DNA of 64,000 bases from Promethearchaeota archaeon (lineage in GTDB: Archaea; Asgardarchaeota; Lokiarchaeia; Sigyniarchaeales; SOKP01), in contig RDOA01000007.1 in assembly GCA_011364925.1 (NCBI GenBank), forward strand, positions 6,936-70,935, written 5' to 3'. This document shows, in pieces, positions 9,261-18,667 of the stretch. Within the stretch, counting starts at the first letter, position 1; each line of letters opens with the position of its first letter. The notes beneath the pieces were generated by a model that did not search any database, was not told where the DNA came from, and saw only the letters and a list, made by a program, of their open reading frames with translations. Made by a program: the position numbers and the translations under genes.

Positions 9261-10163
9261 ATGCTAAATTTTGAACAAGAACAAAAAGTATTAGAAATTG
9301 GATCGGTACGAATTGGAGGGCAGCCAGGAGAAAACCCAGTTGTTATGATTGCTACCGTTTTCTATACAAATCACGCTGCCTTATTAGACGAAAAAAAAGG
9401 GGAAATTGATCGAGATCTTGTTGAACAAGAATTAAACGAATATTCAGAAATCATAGAGGAAACTGGAATGCAAGGGATAGTTGATATAGTAGGAGGTTAT
9501 CCAGAAGCTTTACTGAAAGAATGTGAATTTGTTGCTGATGTTATCGAATATCCGTTTTTAGTAGATGGCTTAAACGACTCTTCGCGCATTCCAGCTATGG
9601 AAGGGTTAAAAGAAGTGGGACTCTTAGATCGAGCTATTTTAAACAGTATAGATGAATCTACAACAGAGGAGAGCTTAATCAAATTAAAGGAAATTGGAGT
9701 AAAATCCACGGTTTTATTAACTTTTGGAAATAAATATATATTTCCTCAACAGAAAATCGATTTCCTAAAGAATGTATTAATTCCTAAAGCGCAAAAAGCC
9801 AATATTGAAAATATTATTGTTGACACTGCCGTGTTAGATTTACCTTCTATCGGAATCAATGCCGAAACAGCAAGGAGAGTAAAAGCAGAGTTAGGGATCC
9901 CCGTAGGATTTGCTCCTGCTAATGCTATTTATGGTTGGAATTTTGTTAAAAAGTATGGAGATAAAGCTAGATGTGGTGGAATTGCTTCCTTAATGGCTTA
10001 TTGTGTCAATGCTGGAAGTGATTTTGTGCTTTTTGGACCTATTAAATTTTCAAAATGCGTTATACCAGCTATCTCTCTTATCTCAGGCATAAATTCATAC
10101 TATCGAAGGCGAATTTTACGAAAACCTATTTCCGATCGAACCCCATTGAAGCAGATCTTTTAA
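9261..10163 (+). CDS. mtrH: MtrH-family (tetrahydromethanopterin S-methyltransferase subunit H-like) methyltransferase
   Basis: FEQEQKVLEIGSVRIGGQPGENPVVMIATVFY...YPFLVDGLNDSSRIPAMEGLKEVGLLDRAILNSI follows the MtrH N-terminal pattern closely. Confidence 0.8.
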   Translation: MLNFEQEQKVLEIGSVRIGGQPGENPVVMIATVFYTNHAALLDEKKGEIDRDLVEQELNEYSEIIEETGMQGIVDIVGGYPEALLKECEFVADVIEYPFLVDGLNDSSRIPAMEGLKEVGLLDRAILNSIDESTTEESLIKLKEIGVKSTVLLTFGNKYIFPQQKIDFLKNVLIPKAQKANIENIIVDTAVLDLPSIGINAETARRVKAELGIPVGFAPANAIYGWNFVKKYGDKARCGGIASLMAYCVNAGSDFVLFGPIKFSKCVIPAISLISGINSYYRRRILRKPISDRTPLKQIF

Positions 10164-11671
10164 GATATGTATCTAATTAACAAATCTTGTGTTCGATCCA
10201 AGAATTCTTTTACATGTTGATTAATGCTTTCTTTTTTGCTTTCATCGTCTAACAAAAAAAGGATGTACATATCGTAATTTAACACAAGTATTTTCTTGAA
10301 TAAAATAATTGAATCTGAAACTCTAAATGTCGCTTCATCTTTCTCGGTAGCCTTAAAGTTAGAAAATATTTTAAATAACATTGTAAACTGTGGAGCAACT
10401 ACTTCAAAAACATTCAATAATTCTTCAGAATTTTGCATTTCAGTAATTTGCAGTGCTTTAGAATTAAACGATTCTGCTAGCACTAATCCATCACTGCTTA
10501 GGAGTAGGATTAGAGAAGCGTCTGTGGCTAATGAAAATTCTCCAAGGTTATGTTCAACTAAATCTCTATTTGGACTAAGTTTTGCAATACCAGAAGAAAA
10601 GGCTCGCAAAATTGAAAAGATTTGAAAGAGGCTTGTGATAAAAATCTCAGGAGCTCTTTCTGGGGTCAATTTAATTAATTCACTTGTTATGTTTTTAATG
10701 TTCGCTTTGATTTCTTCTGATTCGAGTATGTCAGAATCCCCCTTCGATAATATGTAAATTATTGGTGTGTTTTGTTCCAAATCTGCTAATGCAAGTTTCA
10801 TTTTTTTTAGATACTCTATGCTCTCTTCAAAACGTTTTTTATCGCGGATGTCAATAAAATAGAAAAGCAGGTCTGCTTCGAATAGGTAAATTTGAGCTTT
10901 ATTAAGATATCGTTCGTGATATATTTTTTGTCCACCTAAGTCCCAAATAAATATGGTTGCTCCCAGTGCCTCTATTGAACTTACATCTGCTCCTCTTGTT
11001 GGGCTTAACCCTATCAATTTTGAAAATTTTCTGTCAATAGAAAGTAAAAAACTTGTTTTTCCGCTATTATCTAATCCTGCAAATAAGATTTTCATTTTTC
11101 TCTGAGATGAAATCGGTGTGGAAGGCGTCTTTTCAATGGTTATAATTTTTTTCACTAGATTTCTAAAATCTGATTCTACTTTTTTTTGTTGTGGAATCTG
11201 TTTAGTCAGTTTTTTATCAAAATTAGAGAAGAAATCAATAATGATGTTTTTGAGTCGATTAATATTATTGTAAAGAAAACTCCTTTTTTTCTCGTCAATT
11301 AATATACAAAAGGCACTTGCTGCGGGAATCTCTGTCGTTTCAGTTTCGAAGAAGTGGAAAAATGTGAGAGAAGTTAGTTTAAGATCGGGAAAGGGTATAA
11401 TCCCAAAGTATTGGTAATTTTTTAATACTTCGACCTCTTTATTGTAAACAGCCCCATCTCCTATTAAGAGAGAAATGTTTTTTATTGCGATTTGAGTATA
11501 ATCCCTTAGGGAAATTGCAAGAAGATCTCTCTCTTTTTCCTCTTGACTCATGCTTTCTAACTCTTCGACCTCAAATGGTTGAGGAAACATATAAACTGGT
11601 TGAGGTCCCAGTTTATCGAAGGCGGAAAAGACCATTCCTTTAATGATTGACGATTCGATTAGCTTGTCCAT
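10160..11671 (-). CDS. Three-domain protein: longin-like (uDENN-type) N-domain, Arf/Rag-like small GTPase, C-terminal Roadblock-like domain
   Basis: Longin-like part: VFSAFDKLGPQPVYMFP...IAIKNISLLIGD...YFGIIPFPDLKLTSLTFFHFF. G1 is KILFAGLDNSGKTS, G2 is SPTRG, G3 is IWDLGGQ, and G4 is atypical (ILSKGD). The tail SLILLLSSDGLVLAESF...IILFKKILVLNYDMYILFLL is Roadblock-like. Paralog of 17255..18667. Confidence 0.8.
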   Translation of the reverse strand: MDKLIESSIIKGMVFSAFDKLGPQPVYMFPQPFEVEELESMSQEEKERDLLAISLRDYTQIAIKNISLLIGDGAVYNKEVEVLKNYQYFGIIPFPDLKLTSLTFFHFFETETTEIPAASAFCILIDEKKRSFLYNNINRLKNIIIDFFSNFDKKLTKQIPQQKKVESDFRNLVKKIITIEKTPSTPISSQRKMKILFAGLDNSGKTSFLLSIDRKFSKLIGLSPTRGADVSSIEALGATIFIWDLGGQKIYHERYLNKAQIYLFEADLLFYFIDIRDKKRFEESIEYLKKMKLALADLEQNTPIIYILSKGDSDILESEEIKANIKNITSELIKLTPERAPEIFITSLFQIFSILRAFSSGIAKLSPNRDLVEHNLGEFSLATDASLILLLSSDGLVLAESFNSKALQITEMQNSEELLNVFEVVAPQFTMLFKIFSNFKATEKDEATFRVSDSIILFKKILVLNYDMYILFLLDDESKKESINQHVKEFLDRTQDLLIRYIS

Positions 11672-11755
11672 TCGTTGGAGTTTCTTGTTTATAATTGCTA
11701 ATAATAAAAGGTAGTAAATTTAATTATATATAGCTAGCTTTATTCTAGAACAACA

Positions 11756-12724
11756 ATGCTGGAAAAAATTGCGAACTACATTCGGAATAACAGAAACATC
11801 ATTGAAAAAGAAGAACTTAATCCCATTGTAGAGTTTATCAACGCTAACTCTTACAAGAGTTCCCACATTTTTTCAGACATGGGACAAGATTCTGCGGCAA
11901 TTAAAAGAAACGACGATACGCTTACGTTAGTAACCACCGATAGAATACGAACGAGTTTTATCGAAAGATTTCCATTTGGAGCCGGATTCAGTTCTATATT
12001 GGTTGGTGTTGACGATATTTACGCTTGTGGGGGAACGCCCTTAGCAGCAACGGTTATCATATCTTTCAAGGATAAAAGTGTAGGTCAAAAAATGATTGAA
12101 GGGATTAGTAATGGCTCTCACAAGTTTAAAGTTCCGATTATTAGGGGTCATACCAATACAAAAGATTACTACGAACTAAGCTCTACTTTAATCGGTGAAA
12201 TTAATAAGAACGATTATATTCCTGCTAACACTGCTAAAGAACTTGACGAGATTATTTTGGCTGTGGATTTTGATGGAAAAGTAGGTAGAGCAAGTAAGTT
12301 GCATTGGGATACCGTTACGTATAAATCATCTGAAGAAGTCTTAAACAAAAGGTATGCCATGAATCTTATTGCTCAATCTCATCTTGCCCACTCTTCTAAG
12401 GATGTATCCAATGGTGGAATATTTGGCACGATTTTACAATTATTAAAGTATTCAAGGGTAGGAGCAGCTATCAACATAAATCAAATTGAAATTCCTTCTA
12501 AATTAGTTGCAAAAGGATATGATCTCGAAACTTATGTTCAAATGTTTTTAACTACCTCTTATGTCTTGACCGCAGTTAGCAAAAATTGTCAAAAAATATT
12601 AAAAATATTCCAAGATCACCATATGAACGCGGTTGTTATTGGAAGTATTAAAAATGAGTTTGATTTATCTATTAATAATGGTCAGAATTCGATTAAAGTA
12701 ATTGATTTTAAACATAATATATAA
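11756..12724 (+). CDS. AIR synthase-related protein (PurM/ThiL/HypE superfamily)
   Basis: Motifs: GQDSAAIKRNDDTLTLVTTD...VGVDDIYACGGTPLAATVIISF and SKDVSNGGIFGTILQLL. Confidence 0.7.
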   Translation: MLEKIANYIRNNRNIIEKEELNPIVEFINANSYKSSHIFSDMGQDSAAIKRNDDTLTLVTTDRIRTSFIERFPFGAGFSSILVGVDDIYACGGTPLAATVIISFKDKSVGQKMIEGISNGSHKFKVPIIRGHTNTKDYYELSSTLIGEINKNDYIPANTAKELDEIILAVDFDGKVGRASKLHWDTVTYKSSEEVLNKRYAMNLIAQSHLAHSSKDVSNGGIFGTILQLLKYSRVGAAININQIEIPSKLVAKGYDLETYVQMFLTTSYVLTAVSKNCQKILKIFQDHHMNAVVIGSIKNEFDLSINNGQNSIKVIDFKHNI

Positions 12725-12759
12725 AATTTTAAGAAGAAAATTTAAAACAGGCAATTGCT

Positions 12760-13320
12760 ATGGATTTTGATTTTAAAAAAAGTTTTAAGGGGACAATCTC
12801 CGTTATTGGGACAAGTGAGATCGACGTAGTCACTAAAAAGATAACAATTGAGCTAGGACGATTATTGGCTGAGAATCATTATGCTATTTCTTGTGGAGGG
12901 TTATCTGGAGTAATGGAAGCTGTTTGTAAAGGAGCAAAGCTGGCTAATGGCCTTACAATCGGAGTTATTCCATTTGAAGATAAGTCTTATGCAAATAAAT
13001 ATGTAGATGTTGTAATTCCAGTTCCATTTTCTCAAGCTCGAAACATTATCGTCGTATTGAGTGGTGATGCGTGTGTCGCTGTAGGTGGAAAAGCAGGGAC
13101 GCTTTCTGAAATGTGTTTCGCTTGGATATACGGAAAACCAATTATTGCATTAACAGGTGAAGTTGAGGGATGGTCATCGAAGATGGCAGGAAAAAAAATA
13201 GATGATAGGAGGGGTGACGTAATTTACGAAGCCAAAACTCCTCAAGAGGTAGTTGATAAGTTAAACGATCTCTTTAAATCTCAATCTAAAATAATGTATA
13301 AAATGCCTACCGAATTTTGA
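12760..13320 (+). CDS. TIGR00725-family protein (LOG/SLOG, Rossmann-like, lysine-decarboxylase-like)
   Basis: Motifs: ISVIGTSE...LGRLLAENHYAISCGGLSGVMEAVCKGAK...IGVIP...VAVGGKAGTLSEM. Confidence 0.75.
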   Translation: MDFDFKKSFKGTISVIGTSEIDVVTKKITIELGRLLAENHYAISCGGLSGVMEAVCKGAKLANGLTIGVIPFEDKSYANKYVDVVIPVPFSQARNIIVVLSGDACVAVGGKAGTLSEMCFAWIYGKPIIALTGEVEGWSSKMAGKKIDDRRGDVIYEAKTPQEVVDKLNDLFKSQSKIMYKMPTEF

Positions 13321-13492
13321 TGCAATGAATTTTATTAAAATGCTAATAAAGGCACCTTTTTGAAGGAGTAGTGTGTTTCTTTTTTGAACTTAACAAATGT
13401 TTTTAATATTTAAGTTAAAGATAATTTTATAAGATTGTTTGCAATATTATTCTACATAAGAATATATACAAATATTTTCTTGTGTAGTTCAA

Positions 13493-13497
13493 GGTGA
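13493..13497 (+). promoter_or_regulatory. Shine-Dalgarno-like GGTGA 7 nt upstream of the TTG start at 13505
   Basis: The sequence caaGGTGAaacttttTTG is read directly. Confidence 0.35.
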
Positions 13498-13504
13498 AAC
13501 TTTT

Positions 13505-14473
13505 TTGACAATTCAATATTTAACGAAAGATGAGAAAGACAAGAAGAAAGTTGTTTCAGCGTCAAAGTTGCTCTTTACAGGCTTAGACAACGCCGGAAAG
13601 ACGACAATTATCTACGGATTACAACGAGAATTCTCAAAAATTGCTTTTCTTAAGCCAACACGGGGAGCTCAAAGAAGAATATTTGAATTCATGGGTAAAG
13701 AAATCGCAGAGTGGGATTTAGGAGGACAAGTTTCGTATAGAATTTCCTATTTAAAAAATCCAGGAAAATACTTCGATGACACGGAAATCGCAATTTATGT
13801 GATCGATGTTCAGAATCGAGTGAGACTACCCGAGGCAATAAGTTATCTCAAAGATGTTGTAGCGACATTCAAGAAACTTGAGATTGCGCCCCCGATCTAT
13901 GTTTTTCTCCATAAATACGATCCTGCATTAAGAAGAAATGCTTTAAATGAAATGAAGAATCTTGAAGTAGAAATTAAAGATAAAATAAAACAAACCATAG
14001 ATTATAAACAAATTTTTTATTACAATACAAGCATTTACGAGCTTTCTTCAATTATAAAAGCTATATCAGAGATCCTATTAAGTTTATATTCAAAATCTGA
14101 ATTAATTGAAAAAACTATCGTGGAATTTGGTAAAAAGACATATTCAGATGGAATCGTCCTGCTTGACGATAATTCGTTGATTATCGGTAGTTATTATAAG
14201 GATGAAGAAACTAAGAATCTATTGTCTGCAAGCACGCCTTATTTTCTAACTCTTAACGATAGTTTTATTTTTACCGAGGTTCAACCCAGTCGTCAAGAAG
14301 AGGAAAACCATATGATTGTTCAAAGATTTGGAAGAAATTTCTTATTTAAACAACTGACTTTAAAAGAAGGAATTAACCCATATTACATTCTCATGCTTAA
14401 ACAAGACACTAATATTAATAAAGACGATATAAATTCCTTTTCTAACCTATTAAAAGAGATCTTATACAGTTAA
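13505..14473 (+). CDS. Rag/Gtr-like small GTPase (Arf-like P-loop, HKxD G4) with C-terminal Roadblock-like domain
   Basis: G1 is LLFTGLDNAGKTT, G2 is KPTRG, G3 is EWDLGGQ, followed by IYVIDVQN. G4 is VFLHKYDP (HKxD, as in Rag/Gtr1). The C-terminal ~130 aa (GIVLLDDNSLIIGSYY...YYILMLKQD) are Roadblock-like. TTG start. Confidence 0.75.
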   Translation: MTIQYLTKDEKDKKKVVSASKLLFTGLDNAGKTTIIYGLQREFSKIAFLKPTRGAQRRIFEFMGKEIAEWDLGGQVSYRISYLKNPGKYFDDTEIAIYVIDVQNRVRLPEAISYLKDVVATFKKLEIAPPIYVFLHKYDPALRRNALNEMKNLEVEIKDKIKQTIDYKQIFYYNTSIYELSSIIKAISEILLSLYSKSELIEKTIVEFGKKTYSDGIVLLDDNSLIIGSYYKDEETKNLLSASTPYFLTLNDSFIFTEVQPSRQEEENHMIVQRFGRNFLFKQLTLKEGINPYYILMLKQDTNINKDDINSFSNLLKEILYS

Positions 14474-14599
14474 CTCTTTTCTTTTTTATCTTTGTTTTTG
14501 TCAATATTAATAAAATTGTGTTTTCATACTACTATTATAGTTAAAAGTATAAAAAATTAATAGTTCTGATTTTAACGATAAAAAGAAGAGATAAATAGT

Positions 14600-15598
14600 A
14601 TGATTATTTGCTCTAACTGTGGAACTACAAACAACGAACAAAACGGTCATATATGCAGGAAATGTGGTGCATTGCTCCCAATTTCTGTTAAACCCTCAAG
14701 AACAAAAACTTCATCGAAAAAGTCAGAAAAACCAAAAATTAAAGAGCAAAGAACTCCACCAGAAAAAAAGACGCCTACTACTAAACCAGAAAAGAAACCA
14801 GTTAATAAGGAGTTTAATACGGTGCCCAATGTTTTAGACCTTCACGAAATTCCTAAACCTAATGATCAAACCGAGGAGAAGTACTTGAGAGTTAACGATG
14901 AAAGCGATTTTAGCGAACCTGAAGATGATGGTGAAATTTTGAGAGAAATTCAACCACAACCATTCAGAGGCTCAATAATAGCAGAGAAAGGTGTTTATGG
15001 CCATCACCAGCAAACAGAGGGAGTGACAACTTCAAGGACCCAAGAAATTCCTTCTACTCCTAAAACCGAATCTAGTCTTATAAAACAAAAACAATTAGAA
15101 GAGGACATGACCAAGGTGCTTTCCTTTCTCTCAAAAAAAGTTACAGTTAAACCTCTCGAGTCCGCGAGAAAAAAGGAGGAAGTTAAAAAGAAACCGGAGG
15201 AGGTCATTCCTCCCTCTAGCATGACTGAAATTTTAAAAGATCTTTTAAAACTGGATTTGCATATCGAGGCGTCCGCTATTATAAAGAAAGATGGTACGAT
15301 TTTAGCTTCCGCGATTAGCTCAAGGATATCTGATTCACTTTTTGCTACGATTGGTCAAAATCTATCGATGATTGGTAATGATATTATTAATGGATTGAGT
15401 GCTGGGAACTTATTAAATATCTCAATAAGAGGGACAAATGGCGTTTTAGATTTAGCACCGATAGGATCAAAAGAAACTTTAGGAGACGATATGATTTTAA
15501 TTATTTTCTCACACCCACGAGTTAAAAGCGGAATCATAAATCTTGCCGCATCCAATGTTAGGAAACAGGTTACTCAATATTTAGGCTTGTCAAAGTAA
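14600..15598 (+). CDS. Zinc-ribbon, K/P/E/T-rich disordered linker, Roadblock/LC7 (MglB-like) domain protein
   Basis: N-terminus: CSNCGTTNNEQNGHICRKCG. The linker is ~190 aa. C-terminus: MTEILKDLLKLDLHIEASAIIKKDGTILASAIS...LFATIGQNLSMIGNDIINGL...LLNISIRGTNGVLDLAPIG...MILIIFSH. Confidence 0.8.
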   Translation: MIICSNCGTTNNEQNGHICRKCGALLPISVKPSRTKTSSKKSEKPKIKEQRTPPEKKTPTTKPEKKPVNKEFNTVPNVLDLHEIPKPNDQTEEKYLRVNDESDFSEPEDDGEILREIQPQPFRGSIIAEKGVYGHHQQTEGVTTSRTQEIPSTPKTESSLIKQKQLEEDMTKVLSFLSKKVTVKPLESARKKEEVKKKPEEVIPPSSMTEILKDLLKLDLHIEASAIIKKDGTILASAISSRISDSLFATIGQNLSMIGNDIINGLSAGNLLNISIRGTNGVLDLAPIGSKETLGDDMILIIFSHPRVKSGIINLAASNVRKQVTQYLGLSK

Positions 15599-16387
15599 TT
15601 GTTTTTGCGAGATTATTTTTGAAAGTTTCTCAGTTTTGAAAAAGGGCAAGTTTACTTGCAACTCTTGTAAAAAAGAATTTAAATTATAAACCCCGACTAA
15701 TGGAACTGAATTTTCATTTATCTTAATCCAATTTGATTCTAATGTTACCATTATTGGAATTAGAGTAAATGGTAATCTTTTTCGTAAATCATAATTGATT
15801 CCTAATATGTTCTGGATTAAGTTGGAGAGTACTTCGGGATTTTTTTTTAACGCCACCACTCTTTGGTATTGTAAATTAGCGGCTTTGTTAATCGCGCTGT
15901 AAGAATCTTTCCTTTTCCATTGCTTTGCGTCTATGACGAGTATAATGTTTTGGTGTATACCGATTACATCAATCTCGTATCTTTTTTGAGATGTTTCGTA
16001 CTTCAATGTTGATTTATCAGAAAATCTAAAATTTTTAGTAGTTTTATAGTTATTTTTTGAGAGAATATCTTGGATTAAAGCTTCAAATCCGTCGTAATCC
16101 AATAAATACGACAATTGATTAATATCTACCTCTAGGAATTGCAAACATATAGTAATAAATAGTATTTTGTCAACAACAATGTAATTAATATAGTTCCCTT
16201 TTTGAATAGAAATAAAATCAAACATACTTAAGAATTCGCGGAGCTTGAATTCGCTAAAATCCTTTAAAAAATCAATTTCAGAGATTTCTAACCAGACTTC
16301 GGTTATTTCTGAATTCCCCTCTCTAAGAAGATTATATATTTCTAAGAAAAATTGCTTAATTGAAGGAGAAGAATACAAATCAGACAT
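15590..16387 (-). CDS. PD-(D/E)xK nuclease-fold protein (NERD/Mrr-like)
   Basis: YEIDVIGIHQNIILVIDAKQWKRKD gives the D...(D/E)xK pattern. The 3' end overlaps the convergent gene by 9 nt. Confidence 0.4.
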   Translation of the reverse strand: MSDLYSSPSIKQFFLEIYNLLREGNSEITEVWLEISEIDFLKDFSEFKLREFLSMFDFISIQKGNYINYIVVDKILFITICLQFLEVDINQLSYLLDYDGFEALIQDILSKNNYKTTKNFRFSDKSTLKYETSQKRYEIDVIGIHQNIILVIDAKQWKRKDSYSAINKAANLQYQRVVALKKNPEVLSNLIQNILGINYDLRKRLPFTLIPIMVTLESNWIKINENSVPLVGVYNLNSFLQELQVNLPFFKTEKLSKIISQKQLL

Positions 16388-16456
16388 GATCTATCTTATA
16401 ATAATTATATAAAAGAATGAAAAGAGAGTAATGATATAATGATTATTTCATTAGGA

Positions 16457-16903
16457 TTAATTAGCGTTATTCGCGCTATCAATTAATTTTTTAACTTCCT
16501 TAAACTCGTAGATGACTCCTGAGTAAATGAATTCTTTCAGTTCCTCCTCATCGTGGCATTCTTCTATTTTTTTTTCTAAATCTTTGAATGGAAAGCCTAT
16601 TCGTGTATTTTTCAGGCGTGCAATCTCAAATCCAAATTTTGATAGCGTATAACTAACTAATTCTCTTATAAGAGGTGCTGTAAGTATCTTAAGGTTGGAA
16701 GAAGTGATAAAGCGAAACACATCAAGCGTAACTTTTTCAGCATCCTTCTCAGAAAGGTCTGTCTCTTTTAACAAAGACATGTATATCCGATTTGGGTCAA
16801 ACTTGTTTTTTTTCACTATTCCTGATTCTTTATCTTTATAAAGCACCTCTGGTAAAGAATCATAGATTTTTTCTTCAAACATAATAAAGGATTTTTTATA
16901 CAA
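16457..16903 (-). CDS. Hypothetical protein, possibly ATP-cone-like
   Basis: FDPNRIYMSLLKETDLSEKDAEKVTLDVFRFI...LIRELVSYTLSKFGFE resembles the ATP-cone helix pattern. Weak. Confidence 0.3.
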   Translation of the reverse strand: MYKKSFIMFEEKIYDSLPEVLYKDKESGIVKKNKFDPNRIYMSLLKETDLSEKDAEKVTLDVFRFITSSNLKILTAPLIRELVSYTLSKFGFEIARLKNTRIGFPFKDLEKKIEECHDEEELKEFIYSGVIYEFKEVKKLIDSANNAN

Positions 16904-17254
16904 TTTGATGAAAATTAGTTAAAATAGTAATTATTACCAAATAAAAGCTATTATTAATTTTTTATTAATATAGCATAATCGGCGGAATAACTGTTTTCTA
17001 AGAGCATATTAGTATATATTCAAAATTGCGATTAGTTTTAGAGCGCTTATCTAGATTTTGTTGATTTGAGAATTTTTCTTAAAATATAAGTTATATTTAA
17101 TAGAAAATTCTTTCATAATATATTAGAATAATATAATATTTTAAATCGGTTAAAAAGAATAAGGAAAAGTATATTTTTATGCTAAGAATTGAAAGCAGTG
17201 TTCTTCAGTTATTTCCTTTTAAATCTATAGTAATGTAATGAACTTCATCGAAAT

Positions 17255-18667
17255 ATGACAAAACAAAATAACGGAATCATCAAATCAATCGTATTGAGCG
17301 TGTTTGATGACGATGGTCCAACCCCTAAAATCTATTGGCCAGAGACAATGGACGAGTCTTCAAGATTATTGATTGCAATGAAGACTATCTCTCTTTTGAT
17401 GGGAGATACTGTCTATCAAAATGGAGAATCTACCGAGGATGTTAATTACTTTGGAATCCTACCTTTTCCCGATTTAAAGTTAAATGGATTGACTTACTTT
17501 TTTTTAATCCTAGATCCAACAGCTAGAGGTAACGCTAAAGCAGCGACCGTAACTATCTTAATTGATGAAGACGATAAAATTTTTTTTTATGAAAATATGA
17601 AATACCTCCGGGTTATAATAGATAGCGCGGCATCAAAAATTCAAACGAATAAGAATCTTGATGAACTACGTACTATCATGAATGAACTAAAGGAAGAGCT
17701 TTTTGATTTTACAAGCGAGATGAAAGATCCTTTTTCTTTTAAGCGACAAATTAAAATTTTAATGACTGGACTGGATCGTGCTGGGAAAACGAGTTTTCTT
17801 CACGCAGTTAAGAAACGATATTCTGAAATTATAAAAACATTACCTACAAAAGGGATTGCGAGAAGCGAAGAAAAAATTTTCGAAGAACAAAATTCTACGA
17901 TTTCAGTGTGGGATCTTGGCGGTCAAAAGGCCTATCGAGAAAAGTTCCTTGAGCAAAGAAAGGTCTATTTATACAACATAGATTTGCTCTTTTACTTCAT
18001 AGATGTTCAAGATTCCTCAAGAATTGAGGAGTCAATGGAATTATTTGTTAAAGTTATTGACTCACTGGTAGAATTAGAGGAGTTTCCTCCAATCGTTGTT
18101 TGTTTAAACAAATGCGATCCAGATATACAAGAAAAAGAGGATATCAAGAACAATATTACAGGTTTAATTGAAAGAATTAATAAATTCTCAGAAAGATTCT
18201 TTGTAAAAATTTTTGAAACATCTATTTTCGATGGATTTTCGTTAATCTCTGCTTATTCATATGGATTATCACAATTATCTCCTAACAGAGAGCTATTCGA
18301 AAATCAATTAAAGCATTTCGCGAAAAAAATCACCTCAGATGCGATCCTTTTGTTAAATGAAAAGGGAATTATCCTTTCAAACTTCTCAAATATCGATATC
18401 TCTGAGAAGCTTTTCGAAATATCTGCACCTCATTTTCAAACTTTATACAAAACATTTAAGGAATTTAAGTTACTCAAGCAAGATTTTCTAATTTCCTCAG
18501 GAATTACCGATGAATCAAAAAAGATTATCTTTAAGAGGATTACGGTTGATAAACACAACTTATACTTGTTACTTTTTATGGAGAGAGATTTGAATCTAGA
18601 TAAAATAGAAAGGCATTTACCCAAACTCTCTAAAAACCTTAATGAATTAATTCAAACATACATTTAA
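17255..18667 (+). CDS. Three-domain protein: longin-like N-domain, Arf-like small GTPase, Roadblock-like C-domain (paralog of 10160..11671)
   Basis: Longin-like part: IVLSVFDDDGPTPKIYWP...IAMKTISLLMGD...YFGILPFPDLKLNGLTYFFLI. G1 is ILMTGLDRAGKTS, G2 is LPTKG, G3 is VWDLGGQ, G4 is CLNKCDP. The tail is AILLLNEKGIILSNFS...IIFKRITVDKHNLYLLLFM. Confidence 0.8.
   Translation: MTKQNNGIIKSIVLSVFDDDGPTPKIYWPETMDESSRLLIAMKTISLLMGDTVYQNGESTEDVNYFGILPFPDLKLNGLTYFFLILDPTARGNAKAATVTILIDEDDKIFFYENMKYLRVIIDSAASKIQTNKNLDELRTIMNELKEELFDFTSEMKDPFSFKRQIKILMTGLDRAGKTSFLHAVKKRYSEIIKTLPTKGIARSEEKIFEEQNSTISVWDLGGQKAYREKFLEQRKVYLYNIDLLFYFIDVQDSSRIEESMELFVKVIDSLVELEEFPPIVVCLNKCDPDIQEKEDIKNNITGLIERINKFSERFFVKIFETSIFDGFSLISAYSYGLSQLSPNRELFENQLKHFAKKITSDAILLLNEKGIILSNFSNIDISEKLFEISAPHFQTLYKTFKEFKLLKQDFLISSGITDESKKIIFKRITVDKHNLYLLLFMERDLNLDKIERHLPKLSKNLNELIQTYI

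Follow-up and report, generated by a model that had tools for sequence, protein, structure and literature searches.

Does a small GTPase that carries longin and roadblock domains on the same polypeptide also carry its own regulator? This question is raised by two genes in an AT-rich, 64,000-nucleotide stretch of a Promethearchaeota archaeon genome (assembly GCA_011364925.1, contig RDOA01000007.1, positions 6,936 to 70,935; GC about 32%), hereafter the window. Gene A (10160..11671, minus strand) encodes 503 amino acids (aa) and is 100% identical to NCBI EAX91_04125, a "hypothetical protein" from a Candidatus Lokiarchaeota metagenome-assembled genome (MAG), and gene B (17255..18667, plus strand) encodes 470 aa. 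Both proteins have the domain order longin-GTPase-roadblock (LGR), and they differ in that the longin of B bears a candidate arginine finger that is missing from A. We favour, with moderate confidence drawn from sequence conservation and predicted folds, the reading that A and B are Asgard Rag-family GTPases with a longin of the GTPase-activating protein (GAP) type, and that they form a dimer, probably A:B, in which the longin of B would supply the arginine finger.

The fusion of the three domains is genuine. The two open reading frames (ORFs) are present and point apart, as the original prediction from the DNA letters had it, and its description of A and B as collinear paralogs was borne out by an end-to-end BLASTP alignment (35% identity, E 6e-89); compared alone, the N-domains share 38% identity (E 2e-23) and the C-terminal domains 30% (E 8e-18). 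Because more than 200 full-length orthologues in public data share the same lengths, a fused gene call is excluded; an uninterrupted B orthologue is encoded at 82 GTDB species loci, and reading-frame continuity likewise led us to reject an artefact of gene calling.

AlphaFold2 (AF2) models of both full-length proteins, built from 95-sequence alignments, reached a mean predicted local distance difference test score of 76.3 (A) and 74.5 (B), with low values in the switch regions and about 80-90 in the longin and roadblock blocks. The N-terminal domains, comprising aa 1-181 of A (11129..11671, minus strand; placed by AF2 secondary structure and alignments) and aa 1-154 of B (17255..17716, plus strand; AF2 secondary structure), follow the ββ-α-βββ-αα order of longins without a leading helix; compared with B, A carries an extra acidic segment of ~22 aa that separates β2 from α1. 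Of the earlier "uDENN/longin" label the longin half agrees with this order; the uDENN half does not fit, since there is no DENN module: neither protein has a DENN-family Pfam match, and what comes after the longin is a GTPase and a roadblock domain, not DENN/dDENN. The G domains span aa ~190-364 of A (10580..11104, minus strand; GLDNSGKT, PT.G, WDLGGQ) and aa ~163-340 of B (17741..18274, plus strand; GLDRAGKT, PTKG, WDLGGQ). The C-termini that follow them (A, aa 365-503, 10163..10579, minus strand; B, aa 341-470, 18275..18664, plus strand) show the roadblock order α-ββ-α-βββ-α, as had been proposed for the last ~130 aa, and resemble the C-terminal roadblock domain of Rags by AF2 topology, by Foldseek matches to Rag chains, and by the C-domain BLASTP comparison.

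The architecture and fold of A and B are Rag-like, whereas "Arf-like", the term first applied to the G domains, fits the G-domain sequence alone. The best Foldseek matches of both models are whole Rag chains (~310 aligned columns, template modelling score normalised to the target about 0.7), led in both cases by LokiRagO (PDB: 8YL2; E 3e-22 and 3e-18) and followed by RagA/RagC (6S6A) and Gtr1/Gtr2 (3R7W among the targets); the matches listed for the full-length models are Rag and Arf only. Pfam Gtr1_RagA matches the two proteins with E 2e-25 and 4e-20 over profile positions 1-211 and 1-227 of 232, and is the top Pfam family of the full-length proteins (90.0/72.7 bits vs 76.0/65.1 for Arf). When the G domain was scanned alone, Arf scored 74.8/65.8 bits vs 70.7/53.3 for Gtr1_RagA, so the earlier label holds by bit score for that domain and fails once the G domain is taken together with the C-terminus. 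The motifs on which it had been based are all present (FDKLGPQP in A and FDDDGPTP in B, GLDNSGKT and GLDRAGKT, WDLGGQ in both), and G1-G5 are conserved in both orthologue sets (GxxxxGK[ST], PT.G, WDLGGQ, xKxD, TS[IVL]F). No Arf-type N-terminal amphipathic helix adjoins the G domain of A or B; a longin of ~155-180 aa precedes it and a roadblock domain follows. True membership of the Arf family was rejected on this Rag-like architecture. LGR proteins of the cultured Asgard archaeon Candidatus Prometheoarchaeum syntrophicum MK-D1 were likewise described as Arf-like in G-domain sequence and Rag-like in architecture and fold (Tran et al. 2024, PMC10933270), and an Asgard-only ArfL clade is recognised beside ArfR and RagGtr clades (Vargova et al., 10.1101/2024.02.28.582541).

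What distinguishes the longin domains is a short signature of two loops. A Gly-Pro (GP) motif lies at G22-P23 in A (11603-11608, minus strand) and at G21-P22 in B (17315-17320, plus strand), and the candidate arginine finger of B is R91 in the β4-β5 loop (17525-17527, plus strand; all three coordinates checked). Conservation was counted in top-120 orthologue sets (115 B, 116 A) and in orthologues extracted from GTDB genomes (82 B, 22-23 A). R91 sits within an invariant D-x-x-A-R-G-N-A-K-A segment and is present in 115/115 B orthologues and in all 82 from GTDB, while none of the 116 and 22 A orthologues has an arginine at this column. The GP motif is invariant in both groups and across distant relatives, and A, although it has lost the arginine, still has the GP loop and every core residue of the longin. 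In a set of 29 Arg-bearing sequences with 24-53% identity, no column other than G21, P22, P29, and R91 is invariant.

When the N-domain profile was run exhaustively by HMMER against 1.84 billion proteins, it recovered only 119 representatives. These sort into three sets: LGRs from various subfamilies, fusions of the longin to Rab/Ras-like GTPases (~335-350 aa), and standalone or differently placed domains. Outside the A-type clade, nearly every member of the family-wide alignment preserves GP and an "xRG" in the β4-β5 loop, and this holds for B-type LGRs, standalone members, and fusions of the longin to a Rab-like GTPase. An indicative neighbour-joining tree of the G and roadblock domains, given without support values, groups every Arg-less LGR in a single clade nested in an Arg-bearing grade. 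Proteins in which a GP...RG longin is joined to a G domain of the Rab/Ras kind (GDPxVGKT, NKxD; Pfam Ras E 1e-38 to 1e-46) have no roadblock domain and include P0296, P0305, P0309, P0311, P0312, and about 15 others. Because these proteins share the GP...RG longin, the fusion of a candidate GAP longin to a GTPase is a recurring design that is not specific to Rag-like switches.

The same two features have been reported for the longins of eukaryotic GAP complexes. A GP motif occurs in FLCN, NPRL2, SMCR8, and C9orf72, an arginine finger is found in the catalytic subunits, and the combination sets GAP longins apart from other longins; C9orf72 has the GP motif and no finger (PMC12290439). In the active FLCN complex, the loop 10-16, which holds the GP motif, and R164 contact RagC (PMC9473554). 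The order of the motifs also corresponds, with GP in the β1-β2 loop and the arginine in the β4-β5 loop (B, FDDDGP...TARGN; FLCN, ELHGP...LARGF; SMCR8, EQVGP...EARGF; NPRL2, TLGP...YSRNA), and from the longin strand order we infer that these two loops would be neighbours at one edge of the sheet. FLCN:FNIP, GATOR1 (NPRL2:NPRL3), and C9orf72:SMCR8 are paralogous longin heterodimers with one arginine finger each. Drawn as an analogy, the finger asymmetry of A and B mirrors that of FLCN/FNIP, NPRL2/NPRL3, and especially SMCR8/C9orf72, where both partners have GP and one has the finger; A resembles C9orf72 in this respect. Standalone Asgard longins of "Folliculin/SMCR8-type" bear the same GP and arginine-finger signature (Traffic 2025, PMC12290439); these are separate proteins, highlighted in Heimdallarchaeia, whereas the longins described here are fused to a Rag-like GTPase, and the comparison is one of signature.

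If the signature has the same role here, the LGR longin would correspond in archaea to the GAP longins of folliculin, NPRL2, and SMCR8. LGR dimers would be held together by the roadblock domains, in the manner of Rags, and also by the longins, as in the longin GAP pairs, and an A:B heterodimer would be the most likely assembly by analogy with the eukaryotic counterparts and given the conserved co-location of the genes. The GP loop of the B longin would dock on a G domain and R91 would complete its active site; the candidate substrates are the G domain of B itself, that of A, or the RagO-like GTPase encoded between the two genes. Only B would supply an arginine finger to the A:B dimer, and with a single finger GTP hydrolysis would therefore be asymmetric and sequential, at one G domain after the other. 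Such a module would be self-sufficient, holding both the switch and its GAP. The original prediction had already proposed that a regulator is fused to its switch in a self-contained module, which remains plausible and is strengthened by the family-wide invariance of GP...Arg in the longin; the GAP role itself is a prediction from these conserved residues.

Relatives turned up in 207 of the GTDB species genomes scanned, and synteny was assessed in the best 80 loci, which are 61-87% identical to B and all from Asgard MAGs. Essentially every locus with enough flanking sequence has the order MtrH (plus), A (minus), AIR-synthase-like (plus), variable inserts, SLOG (plus), RagO-like (plus), Zn-ribbon-roadblock (plus), NERD (minus), ATP-cone/NrdD, B (plus), and transglutaminase (minus), and the conserved gene order recurs on two further contigs. 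The neighbourhood of A, the LokiRagO orthologue, the Zn-ribbon-roadblock gene, and B is kept across about 80 Asgard species. In 13 genomes, a mirror-tree comparison gave correlations of about 0.95 among the distances of A, B, and RagO vs 0.78-0.94 with neighbouring genes. In the same genomes, A evolves about 1.7x faster than B (mean Kimura distance 0.49 vs 0.29), and the conservation of B and of the RagO-like protein equals that of the MtrH enzyme.

Several observations weigh against a functional pair. A and B lie 5.6 kb apart, are divergently transcribed, and are separated by genes for an AIR-synthase-related protein, a SLOG/TIGR00725 protein, the 322-aa Rag-like GTPase, the 332-aa Zn-ribbon-roadblock protein, a NERD-like protein, and a 148-aa ATP-cone-like protein, four of which are unrelated to them. 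Because the flanking MtrH and transglutaminase genes are equally syntenic, the linkage of A and B, which may reflect a slowly rearranging region, is suggestive and not proof of a functional unit. The residual mirror-tree correlations (0.5-0.64) are a weak signal from few taxa, among three proteins that share a fold. Tran et al. obtained plausible AF2 homodimers of the MK-D1 LGRs (PMC10933270), so an A:B heterodimer is not required.

A possible though less probable alternative is accordingly that A and B act separately, as homodimers or with other partners, that their proximity is inherited gene order, and that A is a GAP-independent or differently regulated switch. The MK-D1 homodimer models show typical roadblock/longin contacts, and GTPases and regulators of MK-D1 are generally not in operons (PMC10933270); A and B likewise do not form an operon. 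LokiRagO is a homotetramer according to the title of PDB entry 8YL2, and on one distant contig (L085) only a B-type gene is found within ±10 kb. However, in a distant MAG with another arrangement, in which neither RagO nor the Zn-ribbon-roadblock gene lies between them, an Arg-bearing and an Arg-less LGR gene are still found 6 kb apart. Eukaryotic RagA/C, FLCN/FNIP, NPRL2/3, and SMCR8/C9orf72 are all paralog heterodimers with one catalytic partner, and the preservation of the GP loop and longin core in A after loss of the arginine also argues for a paired role.

A second alternative, which we regard as somewhat less probable again, keeps the same proteins and denies the catalysis: the longin would be a scaffold or a platform of the guanine nucleotide exchange factor (GEF) type (as in TRAPP, Mon1-Ccz1, DENN, or Ragulator-like assemblies) or an autoinhibitory lid, with the arginine and GP serving a structural or partner-binding purpose. 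Most longin and roadblock platforms are indeed GEFs or scaffolds rather than GAPs (PMC10933270; PMC3747258). Sequence similarity to the GAP longins also stays below curated thresholds throughout. Pfam Folliculin (PF11704) matches the N-domains of 12/12 B-type and 0/13 A-type proteins, always at profile positions ~49-105, and 6/8 further Arg-bearing relatives scanned, with scores of 15-19 bits (E 4e-4 to 2e-2) against a gathering cut-off of 23.3. We also compared the N-domain profiles by hhalign with single human FLCN, NPRL2, SMCR8, and C9orf72 sequences, which are exact matches to PDB chains. R91 of B aligned to R164 of FLCN (..SLARGF..), and the GP loop aligned to the G68-P69 loop of SMCR8 (P 1.4e-4) and to the LGP loop of NPRL2 (P 0.006); these alignments (P 1e-4 to 0.06, without an empirical null) cover short segments and are weak and fragmentary though positionally sensible. 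The N-domain profile gave chance matches only against all PDB sequences, and no eukaryotic FLCN, SMCR8, or NPRL2 was apparent among the 119 HMMER matches, as judged by length and domain make-up in a library without names. A homologue search with a diverse Arg-bearing alignment returned B-type protein fragments only, without informative names or Pfam labels.

Against a scaffold or exchange-factor role, the four columns that remain invariant at 24-53% identity (G21, P22, P29, and R91) contain the GP motif and the arginine, the pair reported to tell GAP longins from other longins (PMC12290439), and the two loops would meet at one sheet edge if the predicted strand order is correct. Folliculin is moreover the only Pfam family that the longin matches repeatedly, and it does so only in Arg-bearing members.

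The G4 motif, to which the original prediction had attached a possible functional difference between the paralogs, does differ as described, with SKGD in A (10736-10747, minus strand) and NKCD in B (18107-18118, plus strand). Its lysine and aspartate are invariant in both orthologue groups, and the first position varies among N, H, S, and T in both clades, with SKxD in 15/115 B orthologues. The Rag-like neighbour has HKYD, and eukaryotic Rags also use HKxD at G4. In A orthologues the P-loop (G1), the switch-I threonine, and DxxGQ are fully conserved, and the G domains of both A and B look competent from their motifs. It is therefore very improbable that A and B are Arf-like GTPases in which SKGD makes A a pseudo-GTPase or shifts its nucleotide specificity: SKGD is well conserved in A orthologues (106/116 and 22/23) and the isolated G domain scores slightly higher as Arf, but the motif retains its lysine and aspartate, G1, switch I, and G3 are intact, and the overall architecture, without an Arf helix, is Rag-like. 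Judged by residue conservation, the robust asymmetry between the paralogs is the longin arginine, present in B and absent from A, and not G4.

Degenerate nucleotide-binding motifs do occur elsewhere among LGRs. Relatives from other subfamilies (P0258, P0260, P0263, P0266, P0277, and P0279) either have P-loops such as GLKNSGRT, GLRSSGKN, and GLPKAGKK or are without the DxxGQ glutamine (WDLNINE, WDI-GED, WNFRDPP). The pseudo-GTPases of the LGR family are plausibly to be sought in these subfamilies rather than in gene A.

The genes between A and B include one further GTPase, not two. Of the "Rag-like pair" first described there, one member is indeed a Rag-like GTPase (322 aa, 13505..14473, plus strand), composed of a G domain and a roadblock domain without a longin. 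It is an orthologue of the crystallised LokiRagO (E 1.7e-85 to 8yl2_A), described in the PDB title as a homotetrameric RagA-like GTPase; our literature search found no paper on the LokiRagO/LokiRagM structures (8YL2, 8ZLA, and 9M28). The other member (332 aa, 14600..15598, plus strand) has no G domain. Its N-terminus is a C4 zinc ribbon (CSNC...CRKC), which is followed by a low-complexity linker of ~150 aa rich in Lys, Pro, and Glu and by a C-terminal roadblock-like domain (Robl_LC7 E 0.0077; roadblock 7yh1 E 0.012). It is encoded directly downstream of the Rag-like gene in about 70 species, diverges quickly (38-72% identity), and could be a Ragulator-like anchor or adaptor. In some lineages (L001, 477-4850; L020, L022, L025, and others), genes for an ACT-domain protein, homoserine dehydrogenase, and threonine synthase lie upstream of the RagO-like gene, in the interval that begins after the AIR-synthase-like gene, with SLOG among them. 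The presence of amino-acid biosynthesis genes is curious since eukaryotic Rags signal amino-acid status, and it may be coincidence.

On either side of gene A lie a gene for a corrinoid methyltransferase of the MtrH family (9261-10163, plus strand; NF002142, E 3e-74, below cut-off) and an AIR-synthase-related gene resembling "methanogenesis marker 2" (11756-12724, plus strand; TIGR03267, E 2e-71, below cut-off). The adjacency of MtrH and LGR genes extends to the distant MAG L084. Upstream of gene B is the 148-aa ATP-cone-like ORF (16457-16903, minus strand; weak ATP-cone match), which is 74-87% identical to a small ORF on the same strand in close relatives. More distant relatives have in this slot, on the opposite strand, an NrdD anaerobic ribonucleotide reductase of ~600 aa (L001, 7995-9791, plus strand) whose N-terminus matches the ORF at 41-50%; in the window, NrdD appears to have given way to a standalone ATP-cone protein. 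No tRNA genes were found by a tRNA scan of the whole 64-kb window, and an Rfam scan of it found no family at gathering score.

The LGR architecture itself is not new. Tran, Akil, Senju & Robinson (2024, Commun Biol) listed 74 small GTPases of MK-D1, LGRs included, modelled LGR homodimers only, and remarked that the longin-GTPases, which do not have the MglA-type switch-I arginine, "may require GAPs" (PMC10933270). Those LGRs have the identical domain order on one polypeptide in an Asgard archaeon; the available part of that paper does not mention the GP/Arg signature, the asymmetry between Arg-bearing and Arg-less paralogs, or the conserved neighbourhood. Rag-family GTPases fused to longin-type domains were also noted by Liu et al. 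In the literature searched, we found no description of the arginine-finger asymmetry or of the conserved four-gene neighbourhood. Three MK-D1 accession numbers lie within ten of each other, those of two LGRs (WP_147663355 and WP_147663364) and of an 8YL2-like Rag (WP_147663357), which suggests that the same neighbourhood exists in the cultured strain.

With the Rag/Gtr heterodimers (RagA/B-RagC/D and Gtr1-Gtr2), A and B share the order of a G domain and then a roadblock dimerisation domain at the C-terminus, the whole-chain structural match, the occurrence as paralog pairs, a non-canonical first G4 residue, and the lack of a C-terminal lipid-modification motif. In contrast, eukaryotic Rags have no N-terminal longin, and their GAPs (FLCN:FNIP and GATOR1) are separate complexes. 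By Foldseek, both A and B are slightly closer to RagA than to RagC, which speaks against an A/C-type orthology, and we know of no TOR pathway in these archaea. Compared with the GAP longins, similarity is sub-threshold, the longin precedes a GTPase and a roadblock domain and not DENN or another C-terminal module, and the presumed substrate is covalently attached; the GAP activity here is a predicted one. Bacterial MglA-MglB is a further case in which a roadblock/longin-fold platform regulates a prokaryotic small GTPase, but MglB is a separate protein that supplies no arginine finger, and MglA has its own switch-I arginine, absent from the longin-GTPases of MK-D1 (PMC10933270).

A bolder extension, which we think unlikely, is that A:B is a two-polypeptide, precursor-like form of the Rag and longin-GAP supercomplex, in which a one-finger longin heterodimer, a pair of G domains of Rag type, and a heterodimer of roadblocks are covalently joined. 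Eukaryotic Rags and longin GAPs could then have arisen by fission of LGR-type genes, and RagO together with the Zn-ribbon-roadblock protein would be Ragulator-like.

Rag GTPases and the longin-domain GAPs folliculin and GATOR1 are at the core of eukaryotic amino-acid sensing, and C9orf72:SMCR8, a related GAP, is relevant to disease. The proposal that the LGR longin supplies an arginine finger is cheaply testable, as it concerns one invariant arginine in soluble proteins with orthologues in the cultured MK-D1. If the arginine is not catalytic, the locus is one more instance of how fusions of GTPase, longin, and roadblock domains have expanded in Asgard archaea, as already described. If it is, the relationship between GAP and substrate would predate eukaryotes, in a covalently linked form, and the asymmetry between catalytic and non-catalytic paralogs that characterises all three eukaryotic GAP complexes would gain an archaeal precedent.

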